Shown here: in pieces, positions 4,197-37,631 of the stretch
How the letters are laid out: each line of letters opens with the position of its first letter
How positions within the stretch are numbered: the stretch's first letter is position 1
Assembly: GCA_021735655.1 (NCBI GenBank)
Contig: JAIPGM010000001.1
Location: forward strand, 256,001-320,000
Length of the DNA stretch: 64,000 nucleotides
Source of the DNA: Candidatus Omnitrophota bacterium
GTDB lineage: Bacteria > Omnitrophota > Gorgyraeia > Duberdicusellales > 4484-171
Direction: 5' to 3'
Notes under the pieces: model-generated
Told to the model about the DNA's origin: nothing
Databases searched by the model: none
Seen by the model: only the letters and a program-made list of their open reading frames with translations
Translations under genes and position numbers: made by a program

Positions 4197-4208
4197 GGAG
4201 GTTAACAA

Positions 4209-4388: not shown

Positions 4389-4403
4389 TATTACTGAAAT
4401 AAA

Positions 4404-5486: not shown

Positions 5487-6464
5487 ATGAAAAATATTGA
5501 GAAAGTAAGATTAGCTTGCGCTTTACTGAGAATAAAATTATTGAAAAAAAGAATACCTTTGATAGTTAGCTGGTCGTTAACCTATAGGTGTAATCATAAA
5601 TGTTTATATTGTGGCATTTGGGAAAAAACTTCGGATGAATTAAGCAACGAACAAATTTTTTCACTTATCGACCAAATGGCGGCGGCAGGGACTCAACGGA
5701 TACATTTTACCGGTGGTGAGCCCTTATTAAGAGATGATATCGATAAGATTCTGATTTATTGTAAAAAAAAGGGAATAAGTACTGCATTGAATTCTAATGG
5801 GTTTTTGATTCCTGAAAAAATAAAATCCCTTATTAATCTCGACTTATTGTCGTTAAGCTTAGATGGGCCAGAAGCGGTGCATGATTCCATCAGAGGTAAG
5901 GGCTCTTACCAACAAGTAATGGGAGCGATAGAGGCAGCTAAGAAAAATAATATAAAAATAAAAATAATAACCGTATTGTCAAAGTTAAATCTAGGCCATA
6001 TTGATTTTATTTTGCATAAAGCGCAGGAATTGAAGATTCCGGTTACTTTCCAACCGACGACGATTTCGGTGCTTGAGGGAAGTAAGCCTAACTCCATTGC
6101 CGCTATCAAAGAAGAGTATAATCAAGCAGTTAGCTATTTAATAAAAGAAAAAAGAAAAAACAAATATATAGGTAATTCTTGTTCAGGATTAAAACATCTT
6201 TATGATTGGCCATCACCGTCAAAAATTTCCTGTGTAAATAGTCGCATTATTTGTCGTCTTGAACCTGATGGCCGTCTTTATGGATGCAATGATTATAAAA
6301 ATAAAGGCCTTGCGGTAGATTGCATAACCCTTGGCTTTAAAAAAGCTTTTGATAGCCTTGTGCCTTTTGCTTGTGATGAATGCTGGTGCGCTTCACTTGT
6401 AGAATTAAACTGTTTATTTGCCATAAAATTAGATACTGTTTTTAGTATTATCAAGTTAATTTAA
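5487..6464 (+). CDS. radical SAM/SPASM-domain protein, paralog A2
   Basis: KKRIPLIVSWSLTYRCNHKCLYC, FTGGEPLLRDDI, LSLDGPEAVHDSIRGKGSY, C-terminal CxxC/CWC cluster. Confidence 0.8.
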   Translation: MKNIEKVRLACALLRIKLLKKRIPLIVSWSLTYRCNHKCLYCGIWEKTSDELSNEQIFSLIDQMAAAGTQRIHFTGGEPLLRDDIDKILIYCKKKGISTALNSNGFLIPEKIKSLINLDLLSLSLDGPEAVHDSIRGKGSYQQVMGAIEAAKKNNIKIKIITVLSKLNLGHIDFILHKAQELKIPVTFQPTTISVLEGSKPNSIAAIKEEYNQAVSYLIKEKRKNKYIGNSCSGLKHLYDWPSPSKISCVNSRIICRLEPDGRLYGCNDYKNKGLAVDCITLGFKKAFDSLVPFACDECWCASLVELNCLFAIKLDTVFSIIKLI

Positions 6465-6473
6465 TGATATGAA

Positions 6474-7463
6474 ATGAAAAAAGCCGAACTATTAGCTGCT
6501 TATAATTTGTCAAAGGCAAAATTTTTTAGGAAGAAAATTCCTTTAGTGGTCGGATGGTCTGTTACTAATAGATGTAACTGGCACTGTGCTTATTGTACGC
6601 GATGGAGTGATCATTCAGAAGAGCTAGATACAAAACAGATTTATTCTATTTTGGACGAATTATTTCAGATGGGCACCTATAGTATTAATTTTACTGGGGG
6701 TGAACCATTGATAAGAGATGATATAGATAGAATAGTTTATTATGCAAAAAGAAAAGGCATCAACGTAACCATTAGCAGTAACGGTTCGTTAGTATCCCAA
6801 AAGATTAAAGAGATTCGTAAAGCTAACCCCCTTATTATTATAAGCTATGATGGGCCGCAAGATGTGCATGGTAGGCAGAGGCAAAAAGATTCTTATCAAT
6901 CTGTGTTGGATGCGATCGAGGCAGCAAAAAAATGTAATATTTTTGTAAAACTTCATACAGTCTTGACTAGGCATAATATAGAGCATGTTGATTCTATATT
7001 AGATTTTGCCAAAAAGTTGGACCTAACTGTGAATTTTGCTGTTGTCGAGTTCACTCCTTTTAGTAAAGAAGAAGCAGTTAAGACTTTATTGCCACCAAAA
7101 GATAAGTATAAATCAGCACTTAAATATCTCATATTTGAAAAAAGAAAAGGTAATAGTAGCGTTAGTAATTCACTTAGTGGTTTGCAATACCTTGAGCAGT
7201 GGCCTGAGTATAGAAAAATAAATTGCTGTGCTGGAAGAATTTACTGTCGGATTGAGTCCAATGGTGATGTTTTTCCTTGTGGCAATTTAATTTTTAAAAG
7301 CAAACCTCGTAACTGTTTAGAATTAGGATTTAAAAATGCTTTCGAGAATATTGAATTTAATGATTGTAAATCCTGTTGGTGTGATACCAGAATTGAGTTG
7401 AATCGTATATATTCTTTTAATTTAGGAGCTATTTTAGAGGTAAAAAGAACTTATAAATTATAA
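6474..7463 (+). CDS. radical SAM/SPASM-domain protein, paralog A3
   Basis: KKIPLVVGWSVTNRCNWHCAYC, FTGGEPLIRDDI, C-terminal C..PCG...CKSCWC. Confidence 0.8.
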   Translation: MKKAELLAAYNLSKAKFFRKKIPLVVGWSVTNRCNWHCAYCTRWSDHSEELDTKQIYSILDELFQMGTYSINFTGGEPLIRDDIDRIVYYAKRKGINVTISSNGSLVSQKIKEIRKANPLIIISYDGPQDVHGRQRQKDSYQSVLDAIEAAKKCNIFVKLHTVLTRHNIEHVDSILDFAKKLDLTVNFAVVEFTPFSKEEAVKTLLPPKDKYKSALKYLIFEKRKGNSSVSNSLSGLQYLEQWPEYRKINCCAGRIYCRIESNGDVFPCGNLIFKSKPRNCLELGFKNAFENIEFNDCKSCWCDTRIELNRIYSFNLGAILEVKRTYKL

Positions 7464-7466
7464 TAT

Positions 7467-8846
7467 ATGAAACAGATTGAAACCGAAGTGCTTATTCTTG
7501 GTGGCGGGTTGAGCGGGCTAATAGCCGCAGAGCTTTTATCTAAAGAAAGAAAAAAAATATTTATTTTAGAAAAAGAGTCTGTATCCGGTGGTTTAGCAAC
7601 GACAGTTCAATTCGAGGGCTTTAAGTTTGATATCGGAGGGCATAGAGTTTGTTTTAATAAGTCAGAGAATATAAATTATTTTAAAGATATCCTTGGTGAA
7701 AAAAAGTTTTTATTTTTGAAGAGAAAAAGCAAGATCATGTTTAACGATAGATATGTAAATTACCCCTTGAGCATCGGTACCGCATTTAATGTAAAAAAAA
7801 TGCATTTATTAAAAATAGCTTTTGATAGGCTTGGTGTGTATTTAAAAAGACAAAATAACTTGACTCCAGATAATTTTGAAGATTGGATAAAGATACATTA
7901 CGGGAAAACATTGTACAATATGTTTTTCAAGGAATATACAGAGAAAGTCTGGGGCAGGCCGTGTGGCGAGCTTTCTTCTAGCTTGGGGATAAGGAGAATG
8001 GGTAGTAAAAAACTATCAAAATTAACTAAATGTATTTCTAGGGGTGACGATGCTTTCAGGGAAAGCGCCCGCTCTTTTTATTACCCTCAAGAAGGAATGG
8101 AGGCGTTAATTAATGCTTTCGAGCAAAAATTAGGTACTAGTTGTAATATTCACAAAAATGTTCGAATCGGAAAAATTACCAGGTCTAACGGAGGGCTGAG
8201 CTGTTTATTGGCCAGCTCTAAAGGAGAACCTTACAAGATAAATTTTAAATATATCTTTTCTTCAATACCGCTTACAGAGCTTTTTAAAGCATTATCTATT
8301 GATGGGTTAACTTTGCCTCACAATTTAGAAAAAGGAATACAATATAGAAGTTTAGTTTTGGTAAGTATGATTGTTAATAAGAAAAATATCTCCCGGTGGC
8401 ATTGGTGTTATTTTCCTTCCCGGAAAGTTATATTTTCAAGATTACATGAGCCAAAGTTTTGGAGTAATGGTATGGCTGTAGATGAGAACAAGACATTGAT
8501 ATGTGCAGAAGTGTTTTGTAACTACAATGATTCATGTTGGCTTATGAATGATCGTGACCTAGCAATAGCAGTAAAAGAAGGTTTAAAGATTAATAAATTA
8601 ATCGATAGTGATCAAGATGTAGGTAATTTTTGCGTAAAGAGGATAAGATATGCCTATCCGCTACCAACTTATGAGTATAAAAAATATTTATCCATAGCTA
8701 AAAAGGCACTTAGTTCTTTTAATAATCTTTTTTTAATAGGAAGGAATGGAACCCATTCTTATTTTAATATGGAAGAATGCCTCGATGATGTGAAAGAGAA
8801 GGTTAAATTTTTACATGAAAATAGCAGTAATTATCCCCGTAACTAG
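7467..8846 (+). CDS. FAD/NAD(P)-dependent oxidoreductase (amine-oxidase / UDP-galactopyranose-mutase-like fold)
   Basis: N-terminal Rossmann dinucleotide motif LILGGGLSGLIAAELL followed by LEKE. Confidence 0.55.
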   Translation: MKQIETEVLILGGGLSGLIAAELLSKERKKIFILEKESVSGGLATTVQFEGFKFDIGGHRVCFNKSENINYFKDILGEKKFLFLKRKSKIMFNDRYVNYPLSIGTAFNVKKMHLLKIAFDRLGVYLKRQNNLTPDNFEDWIKIHYGKTLYNMFFKEYTEKVWGRPCGELSSSLGIRRMGSKKLSKLTKCISRGDDAFRESARSFYYPQEGMEALINAFEQKLGTSCNIHKNVRIGKITRSNGGLSCLLASSKGEPYKINFKYIFSSIPLTELFKALSIDGLTLPHNLEKGIQYRSLVLVSMIVNKKNISRWHWCYFPSRKVIFSRLHEPKFWSNGMAVDENKTLICAEVFCNYNDSCWLMNDRDLAIAVKEGLKINKLIDSDQDVGNFCVKRIRYAYPLPTYEYKKYLSIAKKALSSFNNLFLIGRNGTHSYFNMEECLDDVKEKVKFLHENSSNYPRN

Positions 8847-9852
8847 ACCAGAGCAGGCCGCTATCTGCGTAGATGCCCTTTCAAAACAAAGTTTTCTTAA
8901 TTCTGAAATTGAAATTATCCTCATTAAAGATAAGGATCAGGTTATAGAATTAAAAAAAACTGATATAAAGATAATTATTATAGAAGAGGAAAATCCGCAC
9001 CCTGCTTTTCGGAGAAATTTAGGAGTAAAGCTAACTAATGCAAGGATATTGGCTTTTTTGGATGATGATACTATACCTTGCTCAGAGTGGCTTAGCGAAG
9101 CAGTTCGATACATCGAGAAAGAATCGGTAGATGGTGTTTGTGGGCCTGAATTGCAGTCGCAAAATAACTTATCACTGGGTTATACTCTGGCCGGGGCAGC
9201 TAATGAGACTTTTTTTGTAGAAGGAGTTGAGCGGATGAATGTTACTAGTGAGGGGCCAGTAAGATTTTATAATATTCGTTTATGTAATGTGATTATGAGG
9301 CGTAAAGTGTGGGAGGCCGTGGGAGGATTCAATGAAATAGCTAATTATCACATTGATGATATCGAGTTTTTTTATTTGGCTTGTAACAAAAAGTACAGGT
9401 TCCATTATATACCGAAGATGCTAGTTCACCATCGGCCAGAACCATTTCCTTTTAGATACCTAAAAAAGAAGTTTAACGAGCGGTTCTATACGGGCATGAA
9501 TGCTATGATGTTTAGGGAGATTTATTCATTGATTCCTCAGATATGGTTTGTATATTTACTATATCCGATCATAATTCTTATTTTTTTATTATTTTTTAGT
9601 AATAGCATGTATATCATGCCATTTTTAGCAATTTATTTTGGGCTAATTTTGTGGTTTTCCTACCCTTGGTTTCGGAAAAATAAAAAGATTTTTATTCTTT
9701 TGCCGATAGTATTTATATCGACGCATATAGTTGAGCTAATAGGTTTTTTAGCAGGTACTTTTTATTTTTTTGTTAACAGAAATTATGGGGATGTAACCGT
9801 TAGGATTAAACAGGGAAGATTAGAAAAATGCTCCGAAAGTTTGACGTTATAA
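8815..9852 (+). CDS. family-2 glycosyltransferase with C-terminal multi-TM domain (cassette copy 1)
   Basis: MKIAVIIPVTRP, LAFLDDDT (DxD-like), VGGFNE motif shared with the GT2 at 21075. Hydrophobic C-terminal third. Confidence 0.6.
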   Translation: MKIAVIIPVTRPEQAAICVDALSKQSFLNSEIEIILIKDKDQVIELKKTDIKIIIIEEENPHPAFRRNLGVKLTNARILAFLDDDTIPCSEWLSEAVRYIEKESVDGVCGPELQSQNNLSLGYTLAGAANETFFVEGVERMNVTSEGPVRFYNIRLCNVIMRRKVWEAVGGFNEIANYHIDDIEFFYLACNKKYRFHYIPKMLVHHRPEPFPFRYLKKKFNERFYTGMNAMMFREIYSLIPQIWFVYLLYPIIILIFLLFFSNSMYIMPFLAIYFGLILWFSYPWFRKNKKIFILLPIVFISTHIVELIGFLAGTFYFFVNRNYGDVTVRIKQGRLEKCSESLTL

Positions 9853-10904
9853 AATTTATTAAGGGATACTCTAAAAAAAGTCCGCCTACTTATGTTGTTT
9901 TTTTTGTCACTGCTCGATGCAATTTAAAATGCAAAATGTGTTTTTATTGGAAACGCATAGAGAATGCCAAGGCGGAGGAAGAGCTAAATTTAAATGAAAT
10001 AGAAGCTATATCTCGGTCTTTTGATTGGATTATGAATCTTGCTATTTCTGGCGGAGAACCTTTCTTGCGTGACGATCTTGACCAAATTTGTTTTATTTTT
10101 TATAAAAACAATCACTTGCGATTTATGAATATTCCTACAAATGGAAGTTTTCCGGCAAAAATAAGTTTGATGACTGAAAAAATATTGCGACTATGCAAAA
10201 AGTCTACGGTTACAATTGAATTATCTATAGATGGCATCGGAGAAGCTCATGATCATATCAGAGGGGTAGGAGGAAGCTTTGATAAACTTGAAGATACATA
10301 TTGGAGGCTATCAAAGCTAAAGAAAAGGTATGGTAATCTACGATTGGCGGCAGCAACAACTTTTTCTTATTACAACCAAAACCAGCTTAAGGAGATCATT
10401 TCGTATATAAAGCAGAAAAATTTTTTAGATGATTTTACTATATCAACGGTTCATGGTAATCCTAGGGATCCTATGGCGAAGAGTTTCGGGTTAGATAAGT
10501 ATACCGAGGCTATGAATTTACTTTATAAAGATAAATTATGTAGCAAAAAGGCTTTTGAAAGAGGGCTTCGTGCTTTAAGAAAATCAGTCACTCAAGAAGT
10601 TGTTAACGTGATAAAATATGGAAGGTTAAGGTCTCCTTGTACAGCAGGGAATAAAATAATTGTCATAGATGAAACGGGGAATGTTTTTCCTTGTGAGCCA
10701 ATTAGCGAAAGAATAGGCAGCCTTCGTGATGATGGTTATGATATAAAAAAAATAATTTACTCTAAAAAAAGATACGATTTTGAGAAAAAATACAAAATAA
10801 ATTCTGAGTGTAGCTGTAATTGGGAGTGCGCCATCCTTAATAATGTAATTTATAATCCGAAAAATTTGCCATATTTGATTAGAAATTGGTTTATTGGTTG
10901 TTAA
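9828..10904 (+). CDS. radical SAM protein with Cys-rich C-terminal (SPASM/twitch-like) extension, paralog B1
   Basis: FFVTARCNLKCKMCFYW (CxxxCxxC), SGGEPFLRDD, C-terminal FPCEP...CSCNWEC. Confidence 0.75.
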   Translation: MLRKFDVIKFIKGYSKKSPPTYVVFFVTARCNLKCKMCFYWKRIENAKAEEELNLNEIEAISRSFDWIMNLAISGGEPFLRDDLDQICFIFYKNNHLRFMNIPTNGSFPAKISLMTEKILRLCKKSTVTIELSIDGIGEAHDHIRGVGGSFDKLEDTYWRLSKLKKRYGNLRLAAATTFSYYNQNQLKEIISYIKQKNFLDDFTISTVHGNPRDPMAKSFGLDKYTEAMNLLYKDKLCSKKAFERGLRALRKSVTQEVVNVIKYGRLRSPCTAGNKIIVIDETGNVFPCEPISERIGSLRDDGYDIKKIIYSKKRYDFEKKYKINSECSCNWECAILNNVIYNPKNLPYLIRNWFIGC

Positions 10905-10939
10905 TATATTATAATTAATCTATTCATTTTGGAGTGTTG

Positions 10940-11764
10940 ATGCAAGTTGAAAGTGGGCTGAACGCGATAAGTATAGATGTAGAAGAGTGGTACCAAACAA
11001 CGCTTATCAATGGAAATAATTTTAGTAACACAGAATCTACAAGTTTATTAAAAAATATAGATGAGATATTGTCACTTTTTGAGGAGTGTAACACGAAAGC
11101 TACTTTTTTTATTGTAGGATCAGTAGTTAAGCAATATCCTGATATTGTTAGAATGATAGCTGAGCGAGGTCATGAGTTGGCCAGCCATGGTTATTTCCAT
11201 AAATTAGTTTATAGAATGTCTAAGCAGGAGTTCTCTCGTGACCTTGCCCTTTCGTTAGATGTTTTAAGAGAGAGTGCACAGACGAATATTTTAGGATATC
11301 GTGCCCCGACTTGGTCAATTATTAATGATGCTCATTGGGCGGTAGATATTCTTCAGGCGGCAGGATTAAGGTATGATTCAAGTATTTATCCTTTTAGTTT
11401 TAATTTGATAAAATCTCGAAAATTAGAAAGGTTTCCATATAAAATTAATGATAATTTTATTGAATTTCCGCCCTCTACATTCAAATTTTTGAATTACAAC
11501 TTACCTTTTTGTGGAGGCATGTTTTTACGTAATTTTCCGCTTAGTTTTATCAAGAATAAAATTATTGAGATAAACGCAAAAGGCCATCCGGCCATGGTCT
11601 ATCTACACTCTTGGGAGTTTGATAGTCAGGCAGCTAAGTTCAAAATTCCTAATTGGAAAAGATTGATTCAATATAGTAATATAGGCAGCGTGAAAGGAAA
11701 GCTATTAGAACTTTTGCAAAGCTTTAAATTTACTTCAATAAAAGAAGTTTTACAGCTTAGGTAA
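10940..11764 (+). CDS. polysaccharide deacetylase-family protein (DUF3473-type)
   Basis: N-terminal AISIDVEEWYQ signature of EPS-locus polysaccharide deacetylases, HGYFH. ATG 10940 with GGAG 5 nt upstream preferred over the track GTG start at 10934. Confidence 0.6.
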   Translation: MQVESGLNAISIDVEEWYQTTLINGNNFSNTESTSLLKNIDEILSLFEECNTKATFFIVGSVVKQYPDIVRMIAERGHELASHGYFHKLVYRMSKQEFSRDLALSLDVLRESAQTNILGYRAPTWSIINDAHWAVDILQAAGLRYDSSIYPFSFNLIKSRKLERFPYKINDNFIEFPPSTFKFLNYNLPFCGGMFLRNFPLSFIKNKIIEINAKGHPAMVYLHSWEFDSQAAKFKIPNWKRLIQYSNIGSVKGKLLELLQSFKFTSIKEVLQLR

Positions 11765-11864
11765 TGTAGCATTAAAAGAAGCGTTTGAATCTTTTTTGCT
11801 TATTTTTTAAAGATGGATTTATGATTATTATTTTTTAAATGTTCACTACTTAGAAAGTATTATT

Positions 11865-13559
11865 ATGATGATTACTCGCAGTCGATTTACAAATTTTATT
11901 TTCTATTTAATTATTTTTTTTGTAGTCTTGCTAGCATGTTTATTTATATTTAATAATATAGCGAAGTTTTCCTATTTAACTTATGATAATGAAGAGAGTG
12001 AGAAAGTGTTGCCAGCATTGGTTATTTATCAGGATTTTCGCTCAGGCGACTTAATTTCCTTTCTCAAGCATACATTCGACCAATCAGTGTACCCTTTTTT
12101 AAATTCCTGGTTTCTAGGCTTATATTATTGTATTTTTGGAGTTAGCATAATTAGTTCTCGGGTTTATAGTTTAATTTGTTACTTTTTTTTCCTTATTGTT
12201 TTATATTTTCTCGGTAGAAAAATATGCAAAAGACCTAGCGCTATTTCAGGTTTGATTCCTTGTTTTTTTGCTTTAACTAGTAGCATAGTGCTTATTTATG
12301 CAGCTAAGAGCACTCTTGAATTACCTTACTTATTTGTAGCCTATTGTACATTTGCTTTGTATCTAAATACAATAAACAAGCCCAGTCGCAATAAATTAAT
12401 CGCAGTGAGTTGTTTGATGGCTGCTGGTTTTTTGATCGAGTATGGCTATGGAATTCTAATGGTAATTACGCTTTTAGCAACTCATTTAATAAATAATGGT
12501 TTCAAAGTCAAAAGTATTATAAACAAATCGGTTGCTTATCTCTTTGGACCTTTCATTGTTCTTTCAATTATATGGCTAAGTTTTCCTTTTCGCTTCGTAG
12601 GCTATGTTAGTAAGATTCCTTTTACCGCTTCTTCTTACCTAAAAATTAAACTGCCCTATAAACTTGCTGGACTTTTATATTTGCCAACCTCAGATGTATC
12701 GCACTATAAGATGTTTAGTTGGGAAAATGCTGTTTATTATTTTAAAATAATTAGTAATCAATTTTCAATTTCGCTTATTGTTGCTTTGCTGCTTCTTGTA
12801 TTTTTTTCAGTTTCTTTTCGTGATATAAAAAATAAGAGAACTAATGTTTTTTTGATATATTTTGTTGTTACAATGATATTAGCTTTCCTTTACCCGATTA
12901 AATCTCATCGATACATAATATCAGCTGTTCCCTGCCTTTGGCTTTTAGCCGGTTATCAGATTAATAATTTAATACTTAAGGCAAAAAAGATGTCGCTTGC
13001 TTATAGATATTTCCTTAATCTATTCGTTGTTTTATTTGTATTTTTACATGTTCCAAGCGTGGTTAATCTATACAAGAATTATCCGCAACGCTTATCATGG
13101 GAATATGAGTCTAAAAAAGATCATTTAGAAGTTTACAATTTCATTCTTTCACATATAGATGTTAATAAAAAAGTAGTTGAAGTTGGGTTCCGTGATCCTC
13201 TTTTGATACAAGGACTTACTTGGCATATTCTTGCTAGGCCTTCCAATAAAGATATAAGCTATGATGACTTAAAATTAAGATCTGTTCCTCTCTGGAATTT
13301 AGCAGACGATAGGTTGTATGATGCTAAACATTTAGTTGCGTCTTTACGAGAATATTTGGATGAAAAGGAAGTTGATTATATTGTTTTTACAGAATGGTTA
13401 GGTGATTCGACAGAACATGGAGACCTTCGATATCAGAAAGTTTTGGCTGTCTGCCGAGAGTTATTGAATAATCAAGATTGCTACAAGATAGTAAGGAAAA
13501 AATTATTTAAAGATATCCAAACCGAGGTAGCTATTTACAAAGCAAATAGTTTTTATTAA
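11865..13559 (+). CDS. polytopic membrane protein, GT-C-fold glycosyltransferase-like (ArnT/PMT-like)
   Basis: More than 10 predicted TM helices in the first ~400 aa. Acidic first loop YDNEESE. Soluble C-terminal domain. Confidence 0.45.
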   Translation: MMITRSRFTNFIFYLIIFFVVLLACLFIFNNIAKFSYLTYDNEESEKVLPALVIYQDFRSGDLISFLKHTFDQSVYPFLNSWFLGLYYCIFGVSIISSRVYSLICYFFFLIVLYFLGRKICKRPSAISGLIPCFFALTSSIVLIYAAKSTLELPYLFVAYCTFALYLNTINKPSRNKLIAVSCLMAAGFLIEYGYGILMVITLLATHLINNGFKVKSIINKSVAYLFGPFIVLSIIWLSFPFRFVGYVSKIPFTASSYLKIKLPYKLAGLLYLPTSDVSHYKMFSWENAVYYFKIISNQFSISLIVALLLLVFFSVSFRDIKNKRTNVFLIYFVVTMILAFLYPIKSHRYIISAVPCLWLLAGYQINNLILKAKKMSLAYRYFLNLFVVLFVFLHVPSVVNLYKNYPQRLSWEYESKKDHLEVYNFILSHIDVNKKVVEVGFRDPLLIQGLTWHILARPSNKDISYDDLKLRSVPLWNLADDRLYDAKHLVASLREYLDEKEVDYIVFTEWLGDSTEHGDLRYQKVLAVCRELLNNQDCYKIVRKKLFKDIQTEVAIYKANSFY

Positions 13560-13569
13560 GATTGTAATT

Positions 13570-14586: not shown

Positions 14587-14608
14587 TAGCAGAATTAATT
14601 GAATATTT

Positions 14609-15466: not shown

Positions 15467-15478
15467 GTTAAAGGCGGC

Positions 15479-16219
15479 ATGATAAAAGATATTTCTGTAA
15501 TTATACCTTTGCATAATGAATCCAAGAATATAATGATTCTTTATGACAAGTTAAAAAAGGAATTAGAGCGCTTGAGTAGGGATTATGAGATTATTTTTGT
15601 GGATGATGGGTCCGACGACGATACCTTCAGAATATTAACTGATATTTACGAGAAGGATACCTCAGTAAACATTATTAGTTTTGATAGAAATTATGGCCAA
15701 ACCGCCGGTTTGGCCGCAGGATTTAAGTTTGCAAAGGGAAATATTATTATTACCATGGACGGAGACTTGCAGCATGATCCAGAGGATATTCATAAGTTTA
15801 TCGATAAAATTCAGGACGGTTACGATATGGTAGGTGGGTGGAAAGTTAAAAGATCCGATAACTTTTTTACAAGAAGGCTGCCATCTTTAATTGTAAATAG
15901 AGTAATTTCTTTTTTATTTAAGGTAAAGATGCACGAAGTAAGTTCAACTTATAAGGCTTACAAGAAAGACGTGGTCAAAAATATATTTTTGTACGGTGGT
16001 TTGCATCGTTTTATCCCTTTACTTATTGAAAGCAATTGTTCAGTGTGCGAGGTAGAGATAAGGCACAATAAAAGGCTTTATGGCAAGTCCCATTACAATA
16101 TCGGCAGGGTAGGGAGTGTTATTCACGATTTAGTAATGTTATTGTGGGCGCGTGGTGATAAAAGCTCTAAGCCAAAAAAGCTTGTTTATTCAATAAAAGA
16201 CATGAAATATCATAAGTAA
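15479..16219 (+). CDS. family-2 glycosyltransferase, polyprenyl-phosphate sugar synthase-like (Dpm1/ArnC-like)
   Basis: VIIPLHNESKNI, FVDDGSDDDT, MDGDLQHDPEDI (DxD and QxxD motifs). Confidence 0.7.
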   Translation: MIKDISVIIPLHNESKNIMILYDKLKKELERLSRDYEIIFVDDGSDDDTFRILTDIYEKDTSVNIISFDRNYGQTAGLAAGFKFAKGNIIITMDGDLQHDPEDIHKFIDKIQDGYDMVGGWKVKRSDNFFTRRLPSLIVNRVISFLFKVKMHEVSSTYKAYKKDVVKNIFLYGGLHRFIPLLIESNCSVCEVEIRHNKRLYGKSHYNIGRVGSVIHDLVMLLWARGDKSSKPKKLVYSIKDMKYHK

Positions 16220-16229
16220 ATATATCATT

Positions 16230-17837
16230 ATGACTACAGCGCGATATTCAAAAAATACAGAAAGACTTTTGTTGGGTATTTTGGCGGTGATTTCTCTTTT
16301 GGTTACTTTATATTGCCAGTACCCTTTGTTGACAAATAAATATGCGATTAACGATGATGTGCGCCAAGAAATCTACTTTTATAGTAATTACAATAATAGT
16401 AATCTTTTTCGGAACGATCCAATAACTGATTATTACCGAAGTTGGAATCCTTCGGGATTAAATACATTTTATTATTTTGCAAGCCTGTTTCATGATCCGA
16501 TAGGGGTTACAAAAATATTACCTTTTTTTCTTTGTGTGTTTTCGGCGCTTTACATGTTCGGGATAGGTAAGATATTGAAAGGTAATCTTTGTGGATTCTT
16601 AAGCGGCCTTTTGTTTATTTCTTTAGCCTGGAGCAGAGAGGCTTTTGAAGTTTTTGGTACCGGCAATGGAGAAGATTTTGCGGTAGTTTTCTGTGTGATG
16701 TTTTTGTATTATCTATTGAAAAAAGATTTACTTAAGTCTAGTATAACTTTGATTTTGCTTTCACTTTTCCACCCGTCCTTACTTCTAATTTGTCTATTGA
16801 CTCAATTTTTAGTTTTGATTATAGATTGCCTGAAACATAATAAATCAGCCTCAAAGAAACTATTGGGTTTTATGATAACCTTAATAATAATATTTTTAAT
16901 ATTGTGGCCAAAATATTTATCTGGTCAAATAAAGCTTACTAAATTAAAAGAGATGAAGGCCATGGAGGAGTTTTATCCCGGAGGGAGAAAACCACTTTTT
17001 TTTGAGTCTAGTTATGAACGCTGGACTAACTACGAGAGTGGTTTGGCAATAGATTATCCTTTGAGATGGTTGTTTGGGGTCGCTTCGATCGCCCTCCTTG
17101 TTCTCAGAAAGAAAATTTTGAAGGTTATGCCACCGCAGCTGTTTTATTTTATATTTATTTCTTTTGTATTGTTTGGGATCGCAAATTTATTCATGTATTC
17201 GCTATACGGTCCTTCAAGATATGTTAGATATCCGTTACCTTTATTTTTAATTTTTATTATAACCTTAGGTGTTAGTGAGATTACACAAAAGATAAAGGTG
17301 TCAGCAGGCAGGATAGCACTTATAACAGGGTTTATCGCCTTGATTGGTTTATCCTTTGCGCCTAAGCTACATGCTCATTATGTCGTAGCTCCCTATCCCG
17401 GCCTTTATAGGTTTTTATCAACGCTTCCTGAAAGTAGTCTTATTGCCGGACACCCGGTTTTAATGGATGATGTGCCTACTTTTGCCAAAAGAATAGTGTT
17501 TATTAGTCAAGAAACCTCTATGCCTTATTACGCTAATTTTTATCCTTTCATTAAGAAGCGCACCTATGATTTTTTCCGGGCCTATTATTCTAATGATTTG
17601 CGAGAAATTGATGATTTTTTTAAAAAGTATAATATAACCCACATGGTTGTCCAAAAAAGTAATTTTTCCGAGGACTACATAAAAAGATCTCAATTTTATT
17701 TTAATCCTTTTAATGCTTACGTTGAAGATATTATAAAGAATAGAAAGAAATTTGCCTTAATGGACGTCCCTCAAGATAGCAGATTGTTTGAGACCGAAGA
17801 TGTTTTTGTGATCGCAAAGGATAGCCTTGTTTTCTAA
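16230..17837 (+). CDS. polytopic membrane protein, GT-C-like
   Basis: Many TM helices. Acidic loop INDDVRQE after TM1. C-terminal soluble domain. Confidence 0.4.
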   Translation: MTTARYSKNTERLLLGILAVISLLVTLYCQYPLLTNKYAINDDVRQEIYFYSNYNNSNLFRNDPITDYYRSWNPSGLNTFYYFASLFHDPIGVTKILPFFLCVFSALYMFGIGKILKGNLCGFLSGLLFISLAWSREAFEVFGTGNGEDFAVVFCVMFLYYLLKKDLLKSSITLILLSLFHPSLLLICLLTQFLVLIIDCLKHNKSASKKLLGFMITLIIIFLILWPKYLSGQIKLTKLKEMKAMEEFYPGGRKPLFFESSYERWTNYESGLAIDYPLRWLFGVASIALLVLRKKILKVMPPQLFYFIFISFVLFGIANLFMYSLYGPSRYVRYPLPLFLIFIITLGVSEITQKIKVSAGRIALITGFIALIGLSFAPKLHAHYVVAPYPGLYRFLSTLPESSLIAGHPVLMDDVPTFAKRIVFISQETSMPYYANFYPFIKKRTYDFFRAYYSNDLREIDDFFKKYNITHMVVQKSNFSEDYIKRSQFYFNPFNAYVEDIIKNRKKFALMDVPQDSRLFETEDVFVIAKDSLVF

Positions 17838-17854
17838 AGGAGTTTACGCTAGCC

Positions 17855-19072
17855 ATGTTTATAAAAGCTATACCACCGCATAGGATAGCCGTTACATATA
17901 AAGAAATGTTAAAGCTATTAAGCCTTTTTTTCCAGAGGAAGCTTATGGAGGGCGATTCTATTGAGGAATTTGAACAGAGGTTTGCTGAATATATCGGAAC
18001 CGAATCGGCCTGTGCTGTTTCCTCGGGAAGATACGGATTGAAATTGATACTAGAGTCTTTAGGGCTAAAAAAAGGCGATGAAATAATTATCCCGGCTTAT
18101 ACTTTTTATGTTGTTCCCGAAGTGGTCAAAAAGGCGGGGTTTGTCCCGGTGTTCGTGGACATAAACGCTAATGATTATAATATAGATACCCGATGTATAG
18201 AAGAGAAAATTACCGAAAAGACAAAAGTTATCATTGCGGTACACCTTTTCGGAAAACCTTGCGAATTGGATAGAATATCAGAGATTGCTAAAAAGCATGG
18301 TTTGTTCGTGATTGAAGATTGTGCACAGTCAATTGGCGCTGAATATCGAAATAAAAAAGTCGGATCTTTCGGTAATTGTGCCTATTTCAGTTTTGAAACA
18401 GTAAAACCTTTTCATACTTTCGGCGGAGGAATGATAGTAACTAGTAACAAATCATTACATCAAAAGTTAAAAAAAGCTACGCAGGTATGTTCTTACCCGA
18501 AGTATTCGGGAGTTGCTAAGAAGATATTTTTTACCATTATGGAATCAATGTTAACCAGCTATTTTTTGTTCACAATTTTTATATACCCACTTTTTTTCCT
18601 GGCCATGATTTTTGGTAAAGATCTTAAGAAAGTCGCCAAGCGGACAAAGGGAAAATTTAAGTTGCTTCAGACAAGGTATACTAATTTTCAGGCTTCAATA
18701 GGAATTCTTAAATTTGGAGCCTTAGATTTTCAACTTGAAAGAATGATTATGAATGTAAAGCTTCTAAATGAAAGATTAGATCAAAGTATAGCCACTCAGA
18801 ATTTAGACGACCATACTAAGCCTATATTTTATTACTTTGTTGTTAAAAGCAAAAATAGGAAGAATTTTTCTAATGTTTTATTCCGTAAGGGGATAATCGG
18901 GACTACTAATATGGCACAAAATTGCTGTAAGGATAGTTCTCTCGGCGATTATTATCCGGTTGCCCGGGAAGCGGATGCCGATCTTTTTCAAATACCGGTA
19001 TACAGTAATTTTTCTTTAAAAGACATTGAGCGTTTGTCTAGCATTCTAAATAGGTATTTTAAACAAGAATAG
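17855..19072 (+). CDS. DegT/DnrJ/EryC1/StrS-family PLP-dependent sugar aminotransferase
   Basis: DCAQSIGAEY, FSFETVKPF (PLP-lysine region), overall family length and architecture. Confidence 0.65.
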   Translation: MFIKAIPPHRIAVTYKEMLKLLSLFFQRKLMEGDSIEEFEQRFAEYIGTESACAVSSGRYGLKLILESLGLKKGDEIIIPAYTFYVVPEVVKKAGFVPVFVDINANDYNIDTRCIEEKITEKTKVIIAVHLFGKPCELDRISEIAKKHGLFVIEDCAQSIGAEYRNKKVGSFGNCAYFSFETVKPFHTFGGGMIVTSNKSLHQKLKKATQVCSYPKYSGVAKKIFFTIMESMLTSYFLFTIFIYPLFFLAMIFGKDLKKVAKRTKGKFKLLQTRYTNFQASIGILKFGALDFQLERMIMNVKLLNERLDQSIATQNLDDHTKPIFYYFVVKSKNRKNFSNVLFRKGIIGTTNMAQNCCKDSSLGDYYPVAREADADLFQIPVYSNFSLKDIERLSSILNRYFKQE

Positions 19073-19077
19073 CGAAA

Positions 19078-20058
19078 ATGAAGTCGTATAAAAAATTATT
19101 GGTTGGCGGTGCTATACTCGGAAAAATATTGTTGAAGAAAAGGACACCACTTCTGGTTAGTTGGGTAATCACCGAGAGGTGTAATTATCGTTGTAAATAT
19201 TGCAGTATTTGGAATAAAAAAGTAAGAGATTTAGATTATCAGAATGTTTGCGCTGTCATTGATAAATTATCGAAATGGGGAACTAAAGCTATAGCTTTCA
19301 TTGGAGGCGAACCGCTTTTGCGTGATGATATAGGAAAGATTTTAAAGTATTGTTATCAGAAAGGAATATATACCAAGTTAACCACCAATGGTTCTTTAAT
19401 TTCTAAAAAGCTAGACCAGATTAAAGACGTCGGGTCTGTTAAGTTGAGTTTTGACGGCCCCAAAGAGGTACATGATTCAAACCGCCAGTCGGGTTCTTAT
19501 GAGCATGCTATCGGCGCTGCAGAGCTGCTAAAGAAATCCAAGATTAAAGTGATCTTTAATTGTGTTATTTCTAAAACGAATGTGGAAAGGCTTGATTACG
19601 TATTGTTAATTGCCGCTAAGCTCGGTATCAGAGTTACTTTCCAACCTTTGGAGTTTCGCAATGATCAGGATTTCATATTCGACAATATGCCTTCGGAAGC
19701 TAAATATAAAAAAGCCATAAATAGGCTTATATATGAAAAGAAAAGAGGAAATAGGTACATTGCTAATTCGCTGCCCGGCTTACGATATTTGTATAATTGG
19801 CCCCATGGCAAAGAGTTAAAGTGCTGGGCCGGAACGCTTCATTTTAGGATAGGTCCTCAAGGCAGTTTTTCTGCTTGTGACAGGATTCCTGACGGCTACT
19901 TACCGTTTGATATTTTGAAAGGAGATTTTAAGTCAGCCCTTAAGGGTATGCGGCCCCCCAACTGTAGCCAAGGTTGCTGGCGGAACACAACCATTGAGTT
20001 AAATTATCTTTTATCTCTGCATCCTTTGGCGATATTAAATGCGGTTAATGTCTTTTAA
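19078..20058 (+). CDS. radical SAM/SPASM-domain protein, paralog A4
   Basis: KKRTPLLVSWVITERCNYRCKYC, FIGGEPLLRDDI, FDGPKEVHDS, C-terminal CSQGCW. Confidence 0.8.
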   Translation: MKSYKKLLVGGAILGKILLKKRTPLLVSWVITERCNYRCKYCSIWNKKVRDLDYQNVCAVIDKLSKWGTKAIAFIGGEPLLRDDIGKILKYCYQKGIYTKLTTNGSLISKKLDQIKDVGSVKLSFDGPKEVHDSNRQSGSYEHAIGAAELLKKSKIKVIFNCVISKTNVERLDYVLLIAAKLGIRVTFQPLEFRNDQDFIFDNMPSEAKYKKAINRLIYEKKRGNRYIANSLPGLRYLYNWPHGKELKCWAGTLHFRIGPQGSFSACDRIPDGYLPFDILKGDFKSALKGMRPPNCSQGCWRNTTIELNYLLSLHPLAILNAVNVF

Positions 20059-21049
20059 ATGGGTAATGAAATTAATAAATAAAATAGCTTCTCTTAAATC
20101 TATCCTAAAGGCTAAATGCTTTTCTTACCGGATTCCTTTAATAGTAAGTTGGCATTTGGTTAATCGATGCAATCGAAAATGTAAATATTGTTATCGATGG
20201 AGCACCGTTGAGAAAGAACTATCCAGCGATGAGGTTTTTTGCGTAATCGATGTATTGTCTCAAATGGGCAACCAGGTGATAATATTTAGCGGCGGAGAGC
20301 CTTTACTTAGGGATGATATAGGTAAAATCATAGATTATAGTCAGGCTAAGGGTATCTTTACGGGGTTGACCTCTAACGGTGATTTAGTCCCAGAAAGAAT
20401 AAATGAGATTAAGGGATTGGATATGCTAAAGATAAGTTTCGATGGTCCGAAAGATGTACATGATTTTTTAAGGGGTAAAGGGTCATATGACAATGTTATG
20501 GTGGCCATTGAAACGGCAAAAAAATACAACATCAAGGTTAAGTTCAATACTACTTTAACTAAATATAATATAGAATATATAGATTTCATTTTGGAAAAGG
20601 CAAAGCAATTAAATGTAAAAGTAAAATTTCAACCGGTTAGCCATGTGCACTCAGCCGGAAAAGACATTCGCGATTTTTTTCCCGAGATTAAAGAGTATAA
20701 ACAGGCGGTTCAAAGGTTGATCGACTCAAAAAGGACTAATAAATTTATTATTAATTCGATTGCTAGCCTTAACTATCTTAGTACTTGGCCGCACCCTCTA
20801 AAATTAAAATGTTATGCCGGAAAATTAATCTGTTGCATCACAGCTAATGGAAAAGTTTGGCCTTGTTCAGCGGCGCGTGAGGAATCTTATCATTTGAACT
20901 GTTTAGACCCAAAATTTAAAAAGATGTTTGCTCGAGGGTTGGCTATGCCATTTTGTCAGGGCTGTTGGTGCTCAAGTACTTTGGAACTAAATTGCCTGAT
21001 GAAGTTTAACCTTAATACAATTTTAAACATTAGAAGATTATTTGATTGA
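20039..21049 (+). CDS. radical SAM/SPASM-domain protein, paralog A5
   Basis: YRIPLIVSWHLVNRCNRKCKYC, FSGGEPLLRDDI, FDGPKDVHDFLRGKGSY, CQGCWC. True start may be ATG 20048 or 20066. Confidence 0.8.
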   Translation: MRLMSFKWVMKLINKIASLKSILKAKCFSYRIPLIVSWHLVNRCNRKCKYCYRWSTVEKELSSDEVFCVIDVLSQMGNQVIIFSGGEPLLRDDIGKIIDYSQAKGIFTGLTSNGDLVPERINEIKGLDMLKISFDGPKDVHDFLRGKGSYDNVMVAIETAKKYNIKVKFNTTLTKYNIEYIDFILEKAKQLNVKVKFQPVSHVHSAGKDIRDFFPEIKEYKQAVQRLIDSKRTNKFIINSIASLNYLSTWPHPLKLKCYAGKLICCITANGKVWPCSAAREESYHLNCLDPKFKKMFARGLAMPFCQGCWCSSTLELNCLMKFNLNTILNIRRLFD

Positions 21050-21074
21050 TATCTGATAATTTCTAAACTAGAAT

Positions 21075-22058
21075 ATGGATATTTCAGTAATAATTCCATC
21101 GTATCGACCAGCTGACATAAAAGAATGTTTGAAATCTATTTTTGAATCTGATCTTAGGCCTTGTGAGATTATCTTGGTAGATGATTGTTCAACTCTTGAT
21201 TATTTCAGAGAAATAGATAGTTTTTGCCAGATAATTAAGTTGAAAGAACACGTCGGTCCGGCCAAAGCCAGAAATATTGGTGCTTGTCAAGCAAAAGGGG
21301 ATATTTTTTGTTTCATTGATTCCGATGTTAAAATATTTAGCAATACCTTGAGATTAATAAGTGATTCATTTCAATCTTTACCAGAAATTGCTGCCGTTCA
21401 AACTGCATGCACAGAATATTGTAGATTCACGAATTTTGCAAGCCAATATCATAATTTATACCTATATTTTCACATTGAAGCAATCAGGTGTAAATATATT
21501 AGGACTTTCATCGGAAATTGTTTTGCAGTAAAAAAAGAAGACTTTGTTTCGGTAGGAGGGTTTAATGAAAATATTAAAAATGCAAGCGTCGAGGATGGTG
21601 ATTTTGGTATGCGACTGTCTGAGCAGGAAAGAATAATATATCTAAATAAAAACATTAAAATTGAGCACAGAAGTTATATTAAATTACGAGGCGTACTAAA
21701 AAGAATGTTTATTCAATCCCAAGATAAAGTGTATACTTTAATGAAAAATAAAAGTTTATTTAAATTTTCTCCGGATAAAACTCCTCACTCGAAGGAAAAA
21801 ATATTTTCAGTATTATTGTCGCCTTTGTTGCTGATCAGTTCCATTATTTTAATTTTTGCTCCAAAAACGTATGTAATTTTTCTCTCAGCCTTATTGCTAT
21901 ATTTATTGTCTAGCAGGCAGTTTATCTATTTTACCTTGAAATCCAAAGGGATAATGTTTGCAATTAAAGCTGCTGTTTTTTATTACCTTAATTGCTTAGT
22001 TGCTTTCGTTGGCATAACCTGGGGTGTAATCAAGTTTGGGGGGGGTAATATTATCTAA
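21075..22058 (+). CDS. family-2 glycosyltransferase with C-terminal TM domain (cassette copy 2)
   Basis: MDISVIIPSYRP, FIDSDV, VGGFNEN. Hydrophobic C-terminus. A G8 tract lies in the last codons. Confidence 0.65.
   Translation: MDISVIIPSYRPADIKECLKSIFESDLRPCEIILVDDCSTLDYFREIDSFCQIIKLKEHVGPAKARNIGACQAKGDIFCFIDSDVKIFSNTLRLISDSFQSLPEIAAVQTACTEYCRFTNFASQYHNLYLYFHIEAIRCKYIRTFIGNCFAVKKEDFVSVGGFNENIKNASVEDGDFGMRLSEQERIIYLNKNIKIEHRSYIKLRGVLKRMFIQSQDKVYTLMKNKSLFKFSPDKTPHSKEKIFSVLLSPLLLISSIILIFAPKTYVIFLSALLLYLLSSRQFIYFTLKSKGIMFAIKAAVFYYLNCLVAFVGITWGVIKFGGGNII
22038..22045. repeat. G8 homopolymer in the last codons of the GT2 gene
   Basis: Counted directly: 8 consecutive G encoding GGG, 7 codons before the stop. 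Confidence 0.9.
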
Positions 22059-23164
22059 TGCAGTATATTAAACAAATTTTTAAACTGATTAATAAGAAAA
22101 GTGTGAATCCAGAATATGTTACATTTTTTATTACTAATAAATGCAATGCAAAGTGTAAGCACTGCTTATATTGGTCTAGCCTTAATTCAGACGAAAACGA
22201 ATTGTCTTGTGAGGAGGTTAAAAAGATATCGCAAAATATGGGCAACTTTATATTTTTACTTATCACCGGCGGTGAGCCATTCATGAGAGAAGATATTTCA
22301 GAGATTGCTCGTATTTTTTATGAGAATAACAACATTAAAAAACTTTCCCTAGTGACCAATGGCTATTTTACTGATAAAATAATTGGACATACTAAGGAAA
22401 TATTAAGAAGGTGTCCAAAATTACAGTTGAACCTAAGTATTTCCTTGGATGGCATTGGCAAAAGGCACGATGAAATTAGAGGCCTAGAGGGTATTTTTCA
22501 AAGAGCAATTAATACCATTGGCAATCTAAAAAAAGTTCAGAATTCTTATCCGAAATTATCTATTTCAACCGTTTGCTCATTTTCAGTTTTAAATCAAAAC
22601 GATATTTTTGATATTTATCATTACGCAAGGGATGTTCTTAAACTTGATTCATTTAATTGTCCTTTAGTTCGCGGTAATTTAAAAGACAACTCAATAAAAT
22701 CAAGTGATATAGCTATATACAAAAAGCTTTCAGAGGTTGTGAGAGCTGATGTTGTCAGCGGTAAATTAAAAGGGGCCAGCGATCATTTTATATCTAATGT
22801 AATATCTGCGGCTAAATTTATTGCGACAGATTTAAGCGTAAAGACTTTTGAGGCTGACAAATATATAACTCCCTGTTATGCCGGTAAAATAAATGTAGTT
22901 ATTTACCCTGACGGAGGGGTGTTTCCTTGTGAATTGCGAAAGGAAAAGTTGGGAGATTTAAGGACGGCGAATTATGATTTTAAAAAAATATGGTTTTCAA
23001 AAAAATCAAAAAGAGTTCTTGAGAAAATAAAAGAAACTAAATGCCATTGTTTTCATGGTTGTAATATGTTACCTAATGTTTTATATAATTCTCGATATAT
23101 ACCTAAGATGACTGTGAATTATATAAATGTATTATTAAAGAGATCAGGCAATAACTACAATTGA
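22058..23164 (+). CDS. radical SAM protein with Cys-rich C-terminal extension, paralog B2
   Basis: FFITNKCNAKCKHCLYW, TGGEPFMREDI, FPCELR...CHCFHGC. Start overlaps the GT2 stop. Confidence 0.75.
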   Translation: MQYIKQIFKLINKKSVNPEYVTFFITNKCNAKCKHCLYWSSLNSDENELSCEEVKKISQNMGNFIFLLITGGEPFMREDISEIARIFYENNNIKKLSLVTNGYFTDKIIGHTKEILRRCPKLQLNLSISLDGIGKRHDEIRGLEGIFQRAINTIGNLKKVQNSYPKLSISTVCSFSVLNQNDIFDIYHYARDVLKLDSFNCPLVRGNLKDNSIKSSDIAIYKKLSEVVRADVVSGKLKGASDHFISNVISAAKFIATDLSVKTFEADKYITPCYAGKINVVIYPDGGVFPCELRKEKLGDLRTANYDFKKIWFSKKSKRVLEKIKETKCHCFHGCNMLPNVLYNSRYIPKMTVNYINVLLKRSGNNYN

Positions 23165-37627: not shown

Positions 37628-37631
37628 TAAA

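Follow-up and report, generated by a model that had tools for sequence, protein, structure and literature searches.

The 64,000-nucleotide window analysed here lies on a 341-kb contig from a Candidatus Omnitrophica/Omnitrophota metagenome-assembled genome. Between positions 5487 and 23164 it contains two runs of genes for A- and B-type radical S-adenosylmethionine (rSAM) enzymes and family-2 glycosyltransferases (GT2), which the initial annotation described as a segmentally duplicated four-gene cassette (A, A, membrane GT2, B). This duplication was not supported: it is contradicted by the phylogeny, and DNA comparison and the contexts of the genes elsewhere speak against it. With a probability of roughly 60% we read the apparent cassette as two neighbouring modules of independent kinds in an envelope glycan- or glycolipid-like array: a pair of a B-type rSAM and a GT2 with a transmembrane (TM) tail, termed GT2(TM)-B, and an Omnitrophota-centred set of A-type rSAMs. 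The mechanism is one that we infer. The glycan-type array spans at least 30 kb, contains nine rSAM genes of four types, and has the flagged stretch as its middle part. The genes of both modules and their accessory partners are given below (ORF, open reading frame; L numbers, fetched loci; P numbers, protein representatives).

660-1616, + strand: A1, A-type twitch/SPASM rSAM of 318 amino acids (aa) (Pfam; identical to P0065; ORF start at 570, public-record start at 660)
5487-6464, + strand: A2, A-type rSAM (Pfam, 1.7e-30; orthologs in L001, 53%, and L096, 61%)
6474-7463, + strand: A3, A-type rSAM (Pfam, 3.8e-27; orthologs in L001, 55%, and L096, 64%, always right behind A2')
7467-8846, + strand: flavoprotein, amine-oxidase/UDP-galactopyranose-mutase-like (PRK07208-like; Pfam Amino_oxidase, NAD_binding_8, GLF)
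8815-9852, + strand: GT2a, family-2 glycosyltransferase with hydrophobic C-terminal tail, partner of B1 (Pfam; TM scan)
9828-10904, + strand: B1, B-type rSAM with SPASM/twitch-like C-terminus (Pfam; overlaps GT2a by 25 nt)
19078-20058, + strand: A4, most divergent A-type rSAM, lacking some C-terminal Cys (Pfam; alignment; L001 ortholog, 51%)
20066-21049, + strand: A5, A-type rSAM (Pfam Radical_SAM; ORF start at 20039, public-record start at 20066)
21075-22058, + strand: GT2b, family-2 glycosyltransferase with hydrophobic C-terminal tail, partner of B2 (Pfam PF00535, 5e-20; GT21, 3e-9)
22058-23164, + strand: B2, B-type rSAM/SPASM (Pfam Radical_SAM and SPASM; overlaps GT2b by 1 nt)
23166-24107, + strand: PF03706 'flippase-like' membrane protein, 1 nt behind B2 (Pfam, 1e-38; NCBIfam TIGR00374 above cut-off)

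The ORFs were confirmed at the coordinates given in the initial annotation, all on the + strand, and Pfam confirmed their domain families (Radical_SAM in the A genes, Radical_SAM and SPASM in the B genes, GT2, flavoprotein). The A and B genes carry CX3CX2C and GGEP motifs and score 50-107 bits with PF04055 (gathering score 29.5). The GT2 domains reach 46.5 and 72.5 bits with PF00535 (cut-off 23.3), and GT2a and GT2b give GT21-type signals. The SPASM model PF13186 scores 28.2 for B2 and 19.6 for B1 at a cut-off of 21.5, and five C-terminal Cys residues of the B proteins are invariant (C273, C291, C329, C331, C335). No NCBIfam equivalog cut-off was reached by the A, B, GT2a/b or flavoprotein sequences. 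The B motifs FF.T..CN.KCK.C.YW and PCE were recovered at matching positions of B1 and B2, and both GT2s indeed have VGGFNE and a hydrophobic C-terminal tail (about residues 236-316 and 241-319); GGF[DN]E is a weak marker, also present in 10 of 25 other GT2b-like ORFs of the fetched loci. The motif KKRIPL.V.W..T.RCN..C.YC, said to be shared by the A genes, fits only A2 in its strict form and A2-A4 in a relaxed form, while A1 and A5 deviate.

GT2(TM)-B is strongly supported by sequence comparison as an old two-gene unit that is translationally coupled, inherited as a pair and often a single polypeptide. The GT2(TM)-rSAM/SPASM unit is defined in this analysis and corresponds to no curated family: a tailed GT2 of about 330 aa lies immediately 5′ of, or is fused to, a B-type rSAM, and both pairs of the window have this form. 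Each of the close B orthologs (L006, L007, L008, L092, L093 and L096) has a GT2 of about 330 aa directly upstream, mostly with an overlap; in L006-L008, L092 and L093 this GT2 measures 326-356 aa. The upstream GT2 is 41-52% identical to GT2b in the B2-type loci L006-L008, and 55% (L092) and 37% (L093) identical to GT2a in the B1-type loci. L092 holds two more B1-like genes (50% and 47%) without a GT2 directly upstream, and in L008 the pair stands alone amid translation and fatty-acid genes. Judged from these relationships the window holds two anciently diverged versions of the unit, and GT2a-B1 and GT2b-B2 have separate orthologous pairs in other genomes.

B relatives were gathered from 80 loci, with one genome per species, and come from Omnitrophota, Planctomycetota, Chloroflexota, Acidobacteriota, Gemmatimonadota, Binatia, Elusimicrobia, Clostridia, Patescibacteria, Nanoarchaeota, Iainarchaeia and other taxa. 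A GT2a/b-like gene lies directly upstream of 26 of the 91 B-like genes in the fetched loci, another 9 have such a gene on the downstream side only, and GT2 genes beside B occur in more than ten phyla, including Nanoarchaeota, Iainarchaeia and Patescibacteria. Across 27 adjacent pairs, distances among the GT2s correlate with those among the B enzymes (r=0.85, Mantel p ~2e-4), a sign of co-inheritance that in part reflects shared genome phylogeny, and the hydrophobic tail is kept in 24 of these 27 partner GT2s. A phmmer search of 1.84 billion representatives with the fused P0300 as query gave 137 new representatives from its best 150 hits. Among these best matches, 35 of 137 are GT2-to-B fusions, always in the order GT2 then B, and in 32 of the 35 a hydrophobic tail lies between the GT-A and rSAM domains; Pfam confirmed six of the fusions. 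A pattern scan of JGI metagenomes for B1 relatives returned only 3 loci. Conserved overlap, co-inheritance and the 35 fusion representatives lend strong support to the earlier proposal of a unit made up of B enzyme and membrane GT2, and the further suggestion that such a unit installs one modified sugar is plausible for GT2-B.

The flavoprotein of copy 1 and the PF03706 protein of copy 2 are recurrent accessory partners of GT2-B, because P0142 is a B enzyme fused to PF03706 (the family of the gene directly behind B2), a Planctomycetota locus contains a flavoprotein-GT2-B triad and a Gemmatimonadaceae locus the order flavoprotein-PF03706-B (in L071, PF03706 lies between flavoprotein and B). Flavoprotein-GT2-B or flavoprotein-B neighbourhoods were found in L013, L057 and L071, and a flavoprotein ortholog in L098 (44%) is not beside GT2-B. 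The closest solved sequences of the window flavoprotein are eukaryote-type UDP-galactopyranose mutases (UGMs; 9e-15, about 320 aa); it scores only 50 bits with TIGR00031 against 303.75, and 257 bits, under the cut-off, with NCBIfam PRK07208.

A few further observations concern the same genes. The public record of B1 (P0241, 'hypothetical protein K9L86_00550', 322 aa) starts 36 codons downstream of the ORF start at 9828 and drops the first two Cys of CX3CX2C; this annotated start is probably wrong, because the longer ORF aligns with B2 and the orthologs from residue 1. Directly behind the GT2a-B1 orthologous pair of L092, a gene with DUF362 and 4Fe-4S ferredoxin domains (3202-4326) could encode a dedicated electron donor. 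GT2a and GT2b were also considered as ArnC/GtrB-type polyprenyl-phosphate transferases, which was not supported; the small GT2s of the array fit that description. Our literature searches turned up no published work on a GT2-rSAM unit; from a review of rSAM enzymes that modify lipids, HpnJ and Cds were the sole precedents obtained. The unit is common in uncultured lineages, and the fusions and the stand-alone L008 pair are clean targets for heterologous expression.

The A genes behave differently from the GT2-B pairs. By their relationships A1-A5 are five old orthogroups, seen mainly in Omnitrophota; A1 has its orthologs in L038, L095, L096 and L097 (47-63%), and the adjacency of A2 and A3 is kept in 3 of the 3 genomes that have both. 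Four C-terminal Cys residues are invariant or nearly so (C249, C267, C297, C300), while A4 lacks others. The best structural match of the A-type enzymes is BlsE, and BlsE, viperin and MoaA are the closest folds. A role of the A genes in viperin-type defence was rejected on the core-only match, scores under the cut-off and the wrong context: NF038283 gives 74-88 bits against 180, the PADLOC pVip matches mostly span profile positions 2-155 of 262, and the A C-terminus is Cys-rich instead. Most likely the A enzymes tailor nucleotide-sugars, a guess made because they are BlsE-like and coupled to a DegT gene. This gene and the other members of the array are as follows.

14-640, + strand: A0, C-terminal part of a B12-binding (class B) rSAM cut by the window edge (Pfam Radical_SAM, profile positions 77-166)
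1627-2916 and 2919-4196, + strand: two SGNH/GDSL-like genes (Pfam Lipase_GDSL_2; syntenic in L096 and L001)
4589-5425, + strand: PP-loop ATPase-like, weakly DUF7411/QueC-like (weak Pfam matches; L096 ortholog, 60%; L098 homolog)
10934-11764, + strand: polysaccharide deacetylase with DUF3473, similar in kind to ArnD (Pfam; NCBIfam XrtA-system polysaccharide deacetylase, 240 bits, cut-off 276)
11865-13559, + strand: GT-C membrane glycosyltransferase of the PMT_2, ArnT-like fold family (Pfam PMT_2, 5e-9; multiple TM segments)
13570-14586, + strand: C, third type of rSAM/SPASM enzyme (Pfam SPASM, 5.7e-16, and Radical_SAM; syntenic in L096 and L006)
14609-15466, + strand: YdjC-family carbohydrate deacetylase, HpnK/ChbG-like (Pfam YdjC, 3e-64; NCBIfam HpnK, 178 bits against 232.6)
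15479-16219, + strand: GT2s1, ArnC/GtrB-like polyprenyl-phosphate glycosyltransferase catalytic domain (PDB ArnC, 1e-36; GtrB, 1e-28)
16230-17837, + strand: unk535, membrane protein with about 10 hydrophobic segments (TM scan; orthologs of 40-56% beside A genes in L001, L095, L096, L097 and L098)
17855-19072, + strand: DegT/ArnB/PseC-type sugar aminotransferase (Pfam, 1e-72; NCBIfam)
24239-24982, + strand: GT2s2, second small polyprenyl-phosphate-type GT2 (Pfam, 1.5e-29; NCBIfam PpgS/AglJ/dolichyl-P hexose transferase-like, all under cut-off)

The A genes together with DegT, unk535, SGNH and PP-loop genes form a shuffled, recurring, Omnitrophota-centred block that does not need GT2-B, because of the contexts found in L096, L001, L095, L097 and L098. 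L096 (about 60% aa identity) has the order A0'-A1'-GDSL-GDSL-PPloop-A2'-A3'-GT2-B-deacetylase-C'-GT2s1'-unk535'-DegT' before the contig ends, which is the window order apart from the absence of YdjC, PMT_2 and the flavoprotein. In this stretch (L096 11643-13798, window 8815-10904) identity to the window falls to 39-42% for GT2 and B, against 57-64% for the flanking genes, and the deacetylase reaches 24%; the locus would thus seem to vary, and to exchange genes, at the GT2-B slot. The related Omnitrophota contig L001 carries GDSL-A2'-A3'-unk535'-DegT'-A4'-GDSL-A5' without any GT2(TM)-B, and DegT precedes A4 in it as in the window. The other contexts are A1'-B12 rSAM-unk-A5'-unk535' in L095 and L097, and A-A-B12 rSAM-unk535'-B12 rSAM-flavoprotein-epimerase-A-PPloop-A in L098. 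Conversely, GT2-B occurs without A-A in L006-L008, L092 and L093. Among the fetched loci, A2'-A3'-GT2-B is present in L096 alone.

The leading alternative to the two-module reading is a functional cassette that was assembled twice without duplication from non-corresponding paralogs, with the A-A tandem making the tailored nucleotide-sugar donor for the downstream GT2-B and the gene order reflecting operon logic. We regard this as rather unlikely. The order is not random: that both GT2-B units follow an A-A tandem (one intervening gene allowed) has p ~0.001 under random gene order with GT2-B counted as one unit, a value resting on a naive shuffle, and the order of copy 1 is kept in L096. The genes are tightly spaced, and the A fold is nearest to enzymes with nucleoside- or nucleotide-linked substrates (BlsE, viperin, MoaA). 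Nevertheless, all four A orthologs (A2'-A5') occur without GT2-B in L001, and the GT2b-B2 orthologs lie behind unrelated genes in L006-L008.

Duplication of an ancestral cassette (A-alpha, A-beta, GT2, B) as a block, with later insertion of the flavin adenine dinucleotide (FAD) oxidoreductase gene in copy 1 and each copy installing one modified sugar, is much less probable. It draws on the gene order, which is identical in both copies apart from the FAD gene and improbable under random order, and on its retention in L096; the flavoprotein is, however, a recurrent accessory elsewhere and not a mere insertion. Overlaps were also said to be conserved, which holds only for the GT2/B junctions (-25 nt and -1 nt), as the A/A junctions are gaps of +9 nt and +7 nt (the latter measured from the public-record A5 start). 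The two GT2s are related beyond the GT-A core (hhalign 99%, 297 columns, tail included), and among the four GT2s of the window GT2a and GT2b are each other's best and sole full-length match; this relationship is deep, with an identity of 26% in local and 19% in global alignment. As expected of a block duplication the paralog sets are colinear, while divergence is not uniform across the block.

Comparing 5487-10904 with 19078-23164 by blastn gave no significant DNA match, and a recent duplication or an assembly artefact was rejected on this ground. An all-vs-all BLASTP comparison gave 35-46% identity among A1-A5 with A2-A5, A3-A5, A2-A3 and A1-A4 as the best pairs; A2-A4 share 40%, A3-A4 36% and B1-B2 36%. 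In profile-profile comparison (hhalign) A2-A5, A3-A5, A4-A5 and A2-A3 score above A2-A4 and A3-A4, which are among the lowest. A bootstrapped neighbour-joining tree of the A family (124 sequences, 300 replicates) recovered the pairs predicted by a cassette duplication, {A2,A4} and {A3,A5}, in only 7 and 16 of 300 bootstraps (2% and 5%), and other clades more often ({A4,A5} 104/300, {A1,A5} 101/300, {A2,A3} 55/300), so that bootstrap support for the deep A order is low. In 298-300 of the 300 replicates, each A gene of the window instead forms a group with its named foreign ortholog (47-64% identity) that excludes the window's remaining A genes (orthogroup support 300/300 for A2 and 299/300 for A4). 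The absence of two matching pairs among the A genes is an outcome that the initial annotation itself gave as refuting its proposal. B1 and B2 are not corresponding copies either, being sisters in 0 of 300 bootstraps and falling into separate orthogroups (294/300 and 250/300). Orthologs from other metagenomes are closer than the paralog in the window for A5 (50-64%), B2 (45-55%) and B1 (47-62%). Furthermore, the A block occurs without GT2-B in L001 and GT2-B without A in L008, L092 and L093, GT2-B spans Bacteria and Archaea while the A family is mainly found in Omnitrophota, and the low identity of the L096 GT2 and B compared with their flanks is as expected of an exchangeable module. For genome annotation, the case shows that a gene order repeated within an rSAM-rich glycan locus can arise without duplication.

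Least credible are two readings that make a peptide or protein the rSAM substrate. One is a system for a ribosomally synthesized and post-translationally modified peptide (RiPP) or a cofactor, in which the SPASM rSAMs would be the maturases of a peptide that the GT2 glycosylates, as in mycofactocin (MftC/MftF) or glycocins. It was rejected as unlikely on the scores, far under the cut-offs (110 against 265 for MftC, 78 against 280 for MftF), on the missing precursor and on the position of the rSAM motif, which starts at about residue 28 and leaves no room for an N-terminal extension of the size of a RiPP recognition element. No precursor-like ORF was found, the sole sizeable gap holding a DUF5989 membrane peptide, and this is absence of evidence only; MftA, B, D and E are not present, the surroundings consist wholly of glycan and lipid-carrier enzymes, and the fusions join B to a membrane GT2 and a flippase-like domain. 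Equally improbable is that B installs a post-translational modification on its partner GT2, as anSME does on sulfatases: the tight pairing, the joint inheritance, the fusions and the presence of anSME among the top structural matches would fit. The one direct counter-argument is that the two further B1-like genes of L092 have no GT2 directly upstream; in addition, no case is known to us in which an enzyme is fused for good to the protein that it modifies.

Several points weigh against the two-module reading as well. Of the 91 B-like genes, 56, mostly of 31% identity or less, have no BLAST-detectable GT2a/b neighbour, and the correlation of GT2 and B distances loses weight by the part that is due to genome phylogeny. 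Comparison with solved structures gave only weak N-terminal matches for GT2a and GT2b (TarS, PglI, GalT1). The A-gene contexts sampled amount to about seven independent ones, and all trees are neighbour-joining trees, with a best clade of 35% at the deep nodes of A1-A5, so that a very ancient cassette duplication is conceivable though unsupported. The twofold position of GT2-B after A-A (p ~0.001) and the copy 1 order in L096 point to a possible functional link between the A pair and GT2-B, which the two-module model does not provide for. Acceptor, donor and radical reaction of GT2-B are proposals from gene content and homology.

Within the two-module reading, our best guess for the overall function is radical tailoring of a membrane-anchored sugar, and the array resembles an Arn-like, lipid-carrier-dependent pathway for a cell-envelope glycan or glycolipid. 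Because rSAM chemistry and GT-A enzymes need the cytoplasm and in the fusions a single membrane tail anchors both, the simplest substrate would be a membrane-anchored sugar at the inner leaflet. The GT2 would be embedded in the inner membrane, its catalytic domain facing the cytoplasm, and transfer a sugar onto a membrane-anchored acceptor, which could be a lipid or a polyprenyl-linked glycan. The attached or fused B enzyme would then use a 5′-deoxyadenosyl radical, still on the cytoplasmic side, to modify either the transferred sugar or the donor, with oxidation, epimerisation, decarboxylation and ring contraction as candidate reactions. PF03706 might flip the product, which the GT-C enzymes (PMT_2, unk535) could transfer outside. 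The A enzymes would tailor nucleotide-sugars, A4 together with DegT in the way of BtrN with BtrS, and the lipid-carrier route would be supplied by the aminotransferase, the polyprenyl-phosphate GT2s, the deacetylases, the flippase-like protein and the GT-C transferases. If the unit works in this way, two of the largest enzyme superfamilies are joined in one uncharacterised membrane machine.

A bolder version of this proposal is held only tentatively. The combination of GT-A domain, TM tail and rSAM-SPASM domain, split or fused, might represent an undescribed, widespread class of bifunctional membrane enzymes in Bacteria and Archaea, including the candidate phyla radiation (CPR) and DPANN, that glycosylates a lipid-anchored acceptor and then radically rearranges the sugar in place (ring contraction to a cyclitol or carbasugar, a C-C or ether bond, or NAD-free oxidation), with A1-A5 as a separate multi-step radical route to an unusual amino sugar. 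Rearrangement in place, if true, would yield envelope glycoconjugates resistant to acid or hydrolases.

The array as a whole comprises 29 genes between 14 and 29339, all on the + strand and with gaps of at most 209 nt. The sole sizeable gap of the operon, at 4209-4592, holds two small membrane ORFs, a DUF5989 protein (4209-4388, 59 aa, 3e-14) and one of 62 aa without a match that overlaps the PP-loop gene by 4 nt. At about 30.5 kb a Wzy_C gene lies on the minus strand, and housekeeping genes start beyond it. The full-length A0 ortholog of L096 (3302-4714, 61% identity) carries B12-binding and Radical_SAM domains, and A0 pairs with A1 in the window as in L096 and L038; B12-binding (class B) rSAM genes are very abundant near A and B genes, with up to 4-6 per 20-kb locus (L016, L024, L040, L080, L092, L094, L098). 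A second conserved module consists of C, the YdjC deacetylase, the ArnC-like small GT2 and unk535 (window 13570-17837; L006 13159-17432; L096 14766-18273, there without the YdjC gene). Neither Pfam nor NCBIfam searches gave a match for unk535 (535 aa), which may be an undescribed GT-C-like transferase; its orthologs in L001 and L095-L098 are always neighbours of A-type rSAM and DegT genes. A scan for promoters and terminators gave counts no higher than chance. GC content is 0.30-0.37 in the glycan locus and 0.36-0.39 in the housekeeping part, GC skew is positive in each 2-kb bin of the window (1-64000), and nearly all of its genes are on the + strand. At 36560-40076 a gene for an ATP:guanido phosphotransferase lies 4 nt upstream of one for a Clp-type AAA+ ATPase with Clp_N, two AAA modules and a UVR motif; in domain content the two resemble McsB/ClpC-type pairs, which are better known from Gram-positive bacteria.

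Among known systems, Glf/GlfT, a UGM encoded beside a GT2 galactofuranosyltransferase, is resembled by the flavoprotein at 7467-8846, whose nearest solved sequences are UGMs (9e-15) and whose gene runs into the start of GT2a, although the flavoproteins beside B in other phyla have no GLF signal. MftC/MftF share with the window the combination of an rSAM/SPASM enzyme and a GT2 with C-terminal TM and are the top NCBIfam matches of A3 and of GT2a/GT2b, but they reach only 83-110 bits against 265 (MftC) and 65-78 against 280 (MftF), and the context here is glycan biosynthesis. Unlike in mycofactocin loci, the precursor, the chaperone and MftA, B, D and E were not found in the window. BlsE, a cytosylglucuronate decarboxylase, and BtrN, which works with the aminotransferase BtrS, are twitch rSAMs acting on carbohydrates, with an identity to the A enzymes of only 15-17%; SkfB, anSME and SuiB, with peptide or protein substrates, score nearly as high.

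The Arn pathway is matched by the DegT aminotransferase, the ArnC-like GT2, the polysaccharide-deacetylase-family enzyme, the PMT_2 GT-C enzyme and the flippase-like protein, and the order GT2a-B1-deacetylase-PMT_2 mirrors ArnC-ArnD-ArnT. In contrast to Arn, the locus has no ArnA-type dehydrogenase/decarboxylase (Pfam annotation found no ArnA-like short-chain dehydrogenase/reductase between 1 and 30.5 kb), GT2a/b are not ArnC-like, and the equivalog cut-offs stay out of reach (GT2s1 scores 150 bits with the ArnC model against 529, and the ArnB model gives 143 against 631); Arn in turn has no rSAM counterpart.

In the HpnI/HpnK/HpnJ pathway, which leads from bacteriohopanetetrol via glucosamine to a cyclitol ether and includes the YdjC-type deacetylase HpnK, and with the calditol synthase Cds, a membrane lipid receives a sugar from a glycosyltransferase, and remodelling of this lipid-bound sugar through ring contraction has been proposed for an rSAM enzyme (PMC13459092). 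The ring contractions by HpnJ and Cds are proposed and mechanistically still unproven (PMC13459092). The window differs in that its GT2a/b, A, B and C proteins do not reach the HpnI, HpnJ and HpnH models, and in that no hopanoid or glycerol dialkyl glycerol tetraether (GDGT) core genes were seen in its annotated parts. HpnJ is an rSAM of the B12-domain type, not a SPASM enzyme. The best NCBIfam match of the window YdjC protein is HpnK, at 178 bits against a cut-off of 232.6. The likeness to HpnI/HpnK/HpnJ and Cds lies in the GT2(TM)-rSAM pairs and in the separate trio of rSAM (C), YdjC and GT2; by domain types, this second module (C, YdjC, small GT2) is a closer parallel to HpnJ/HpnK/HpnI than the flagged cassette.

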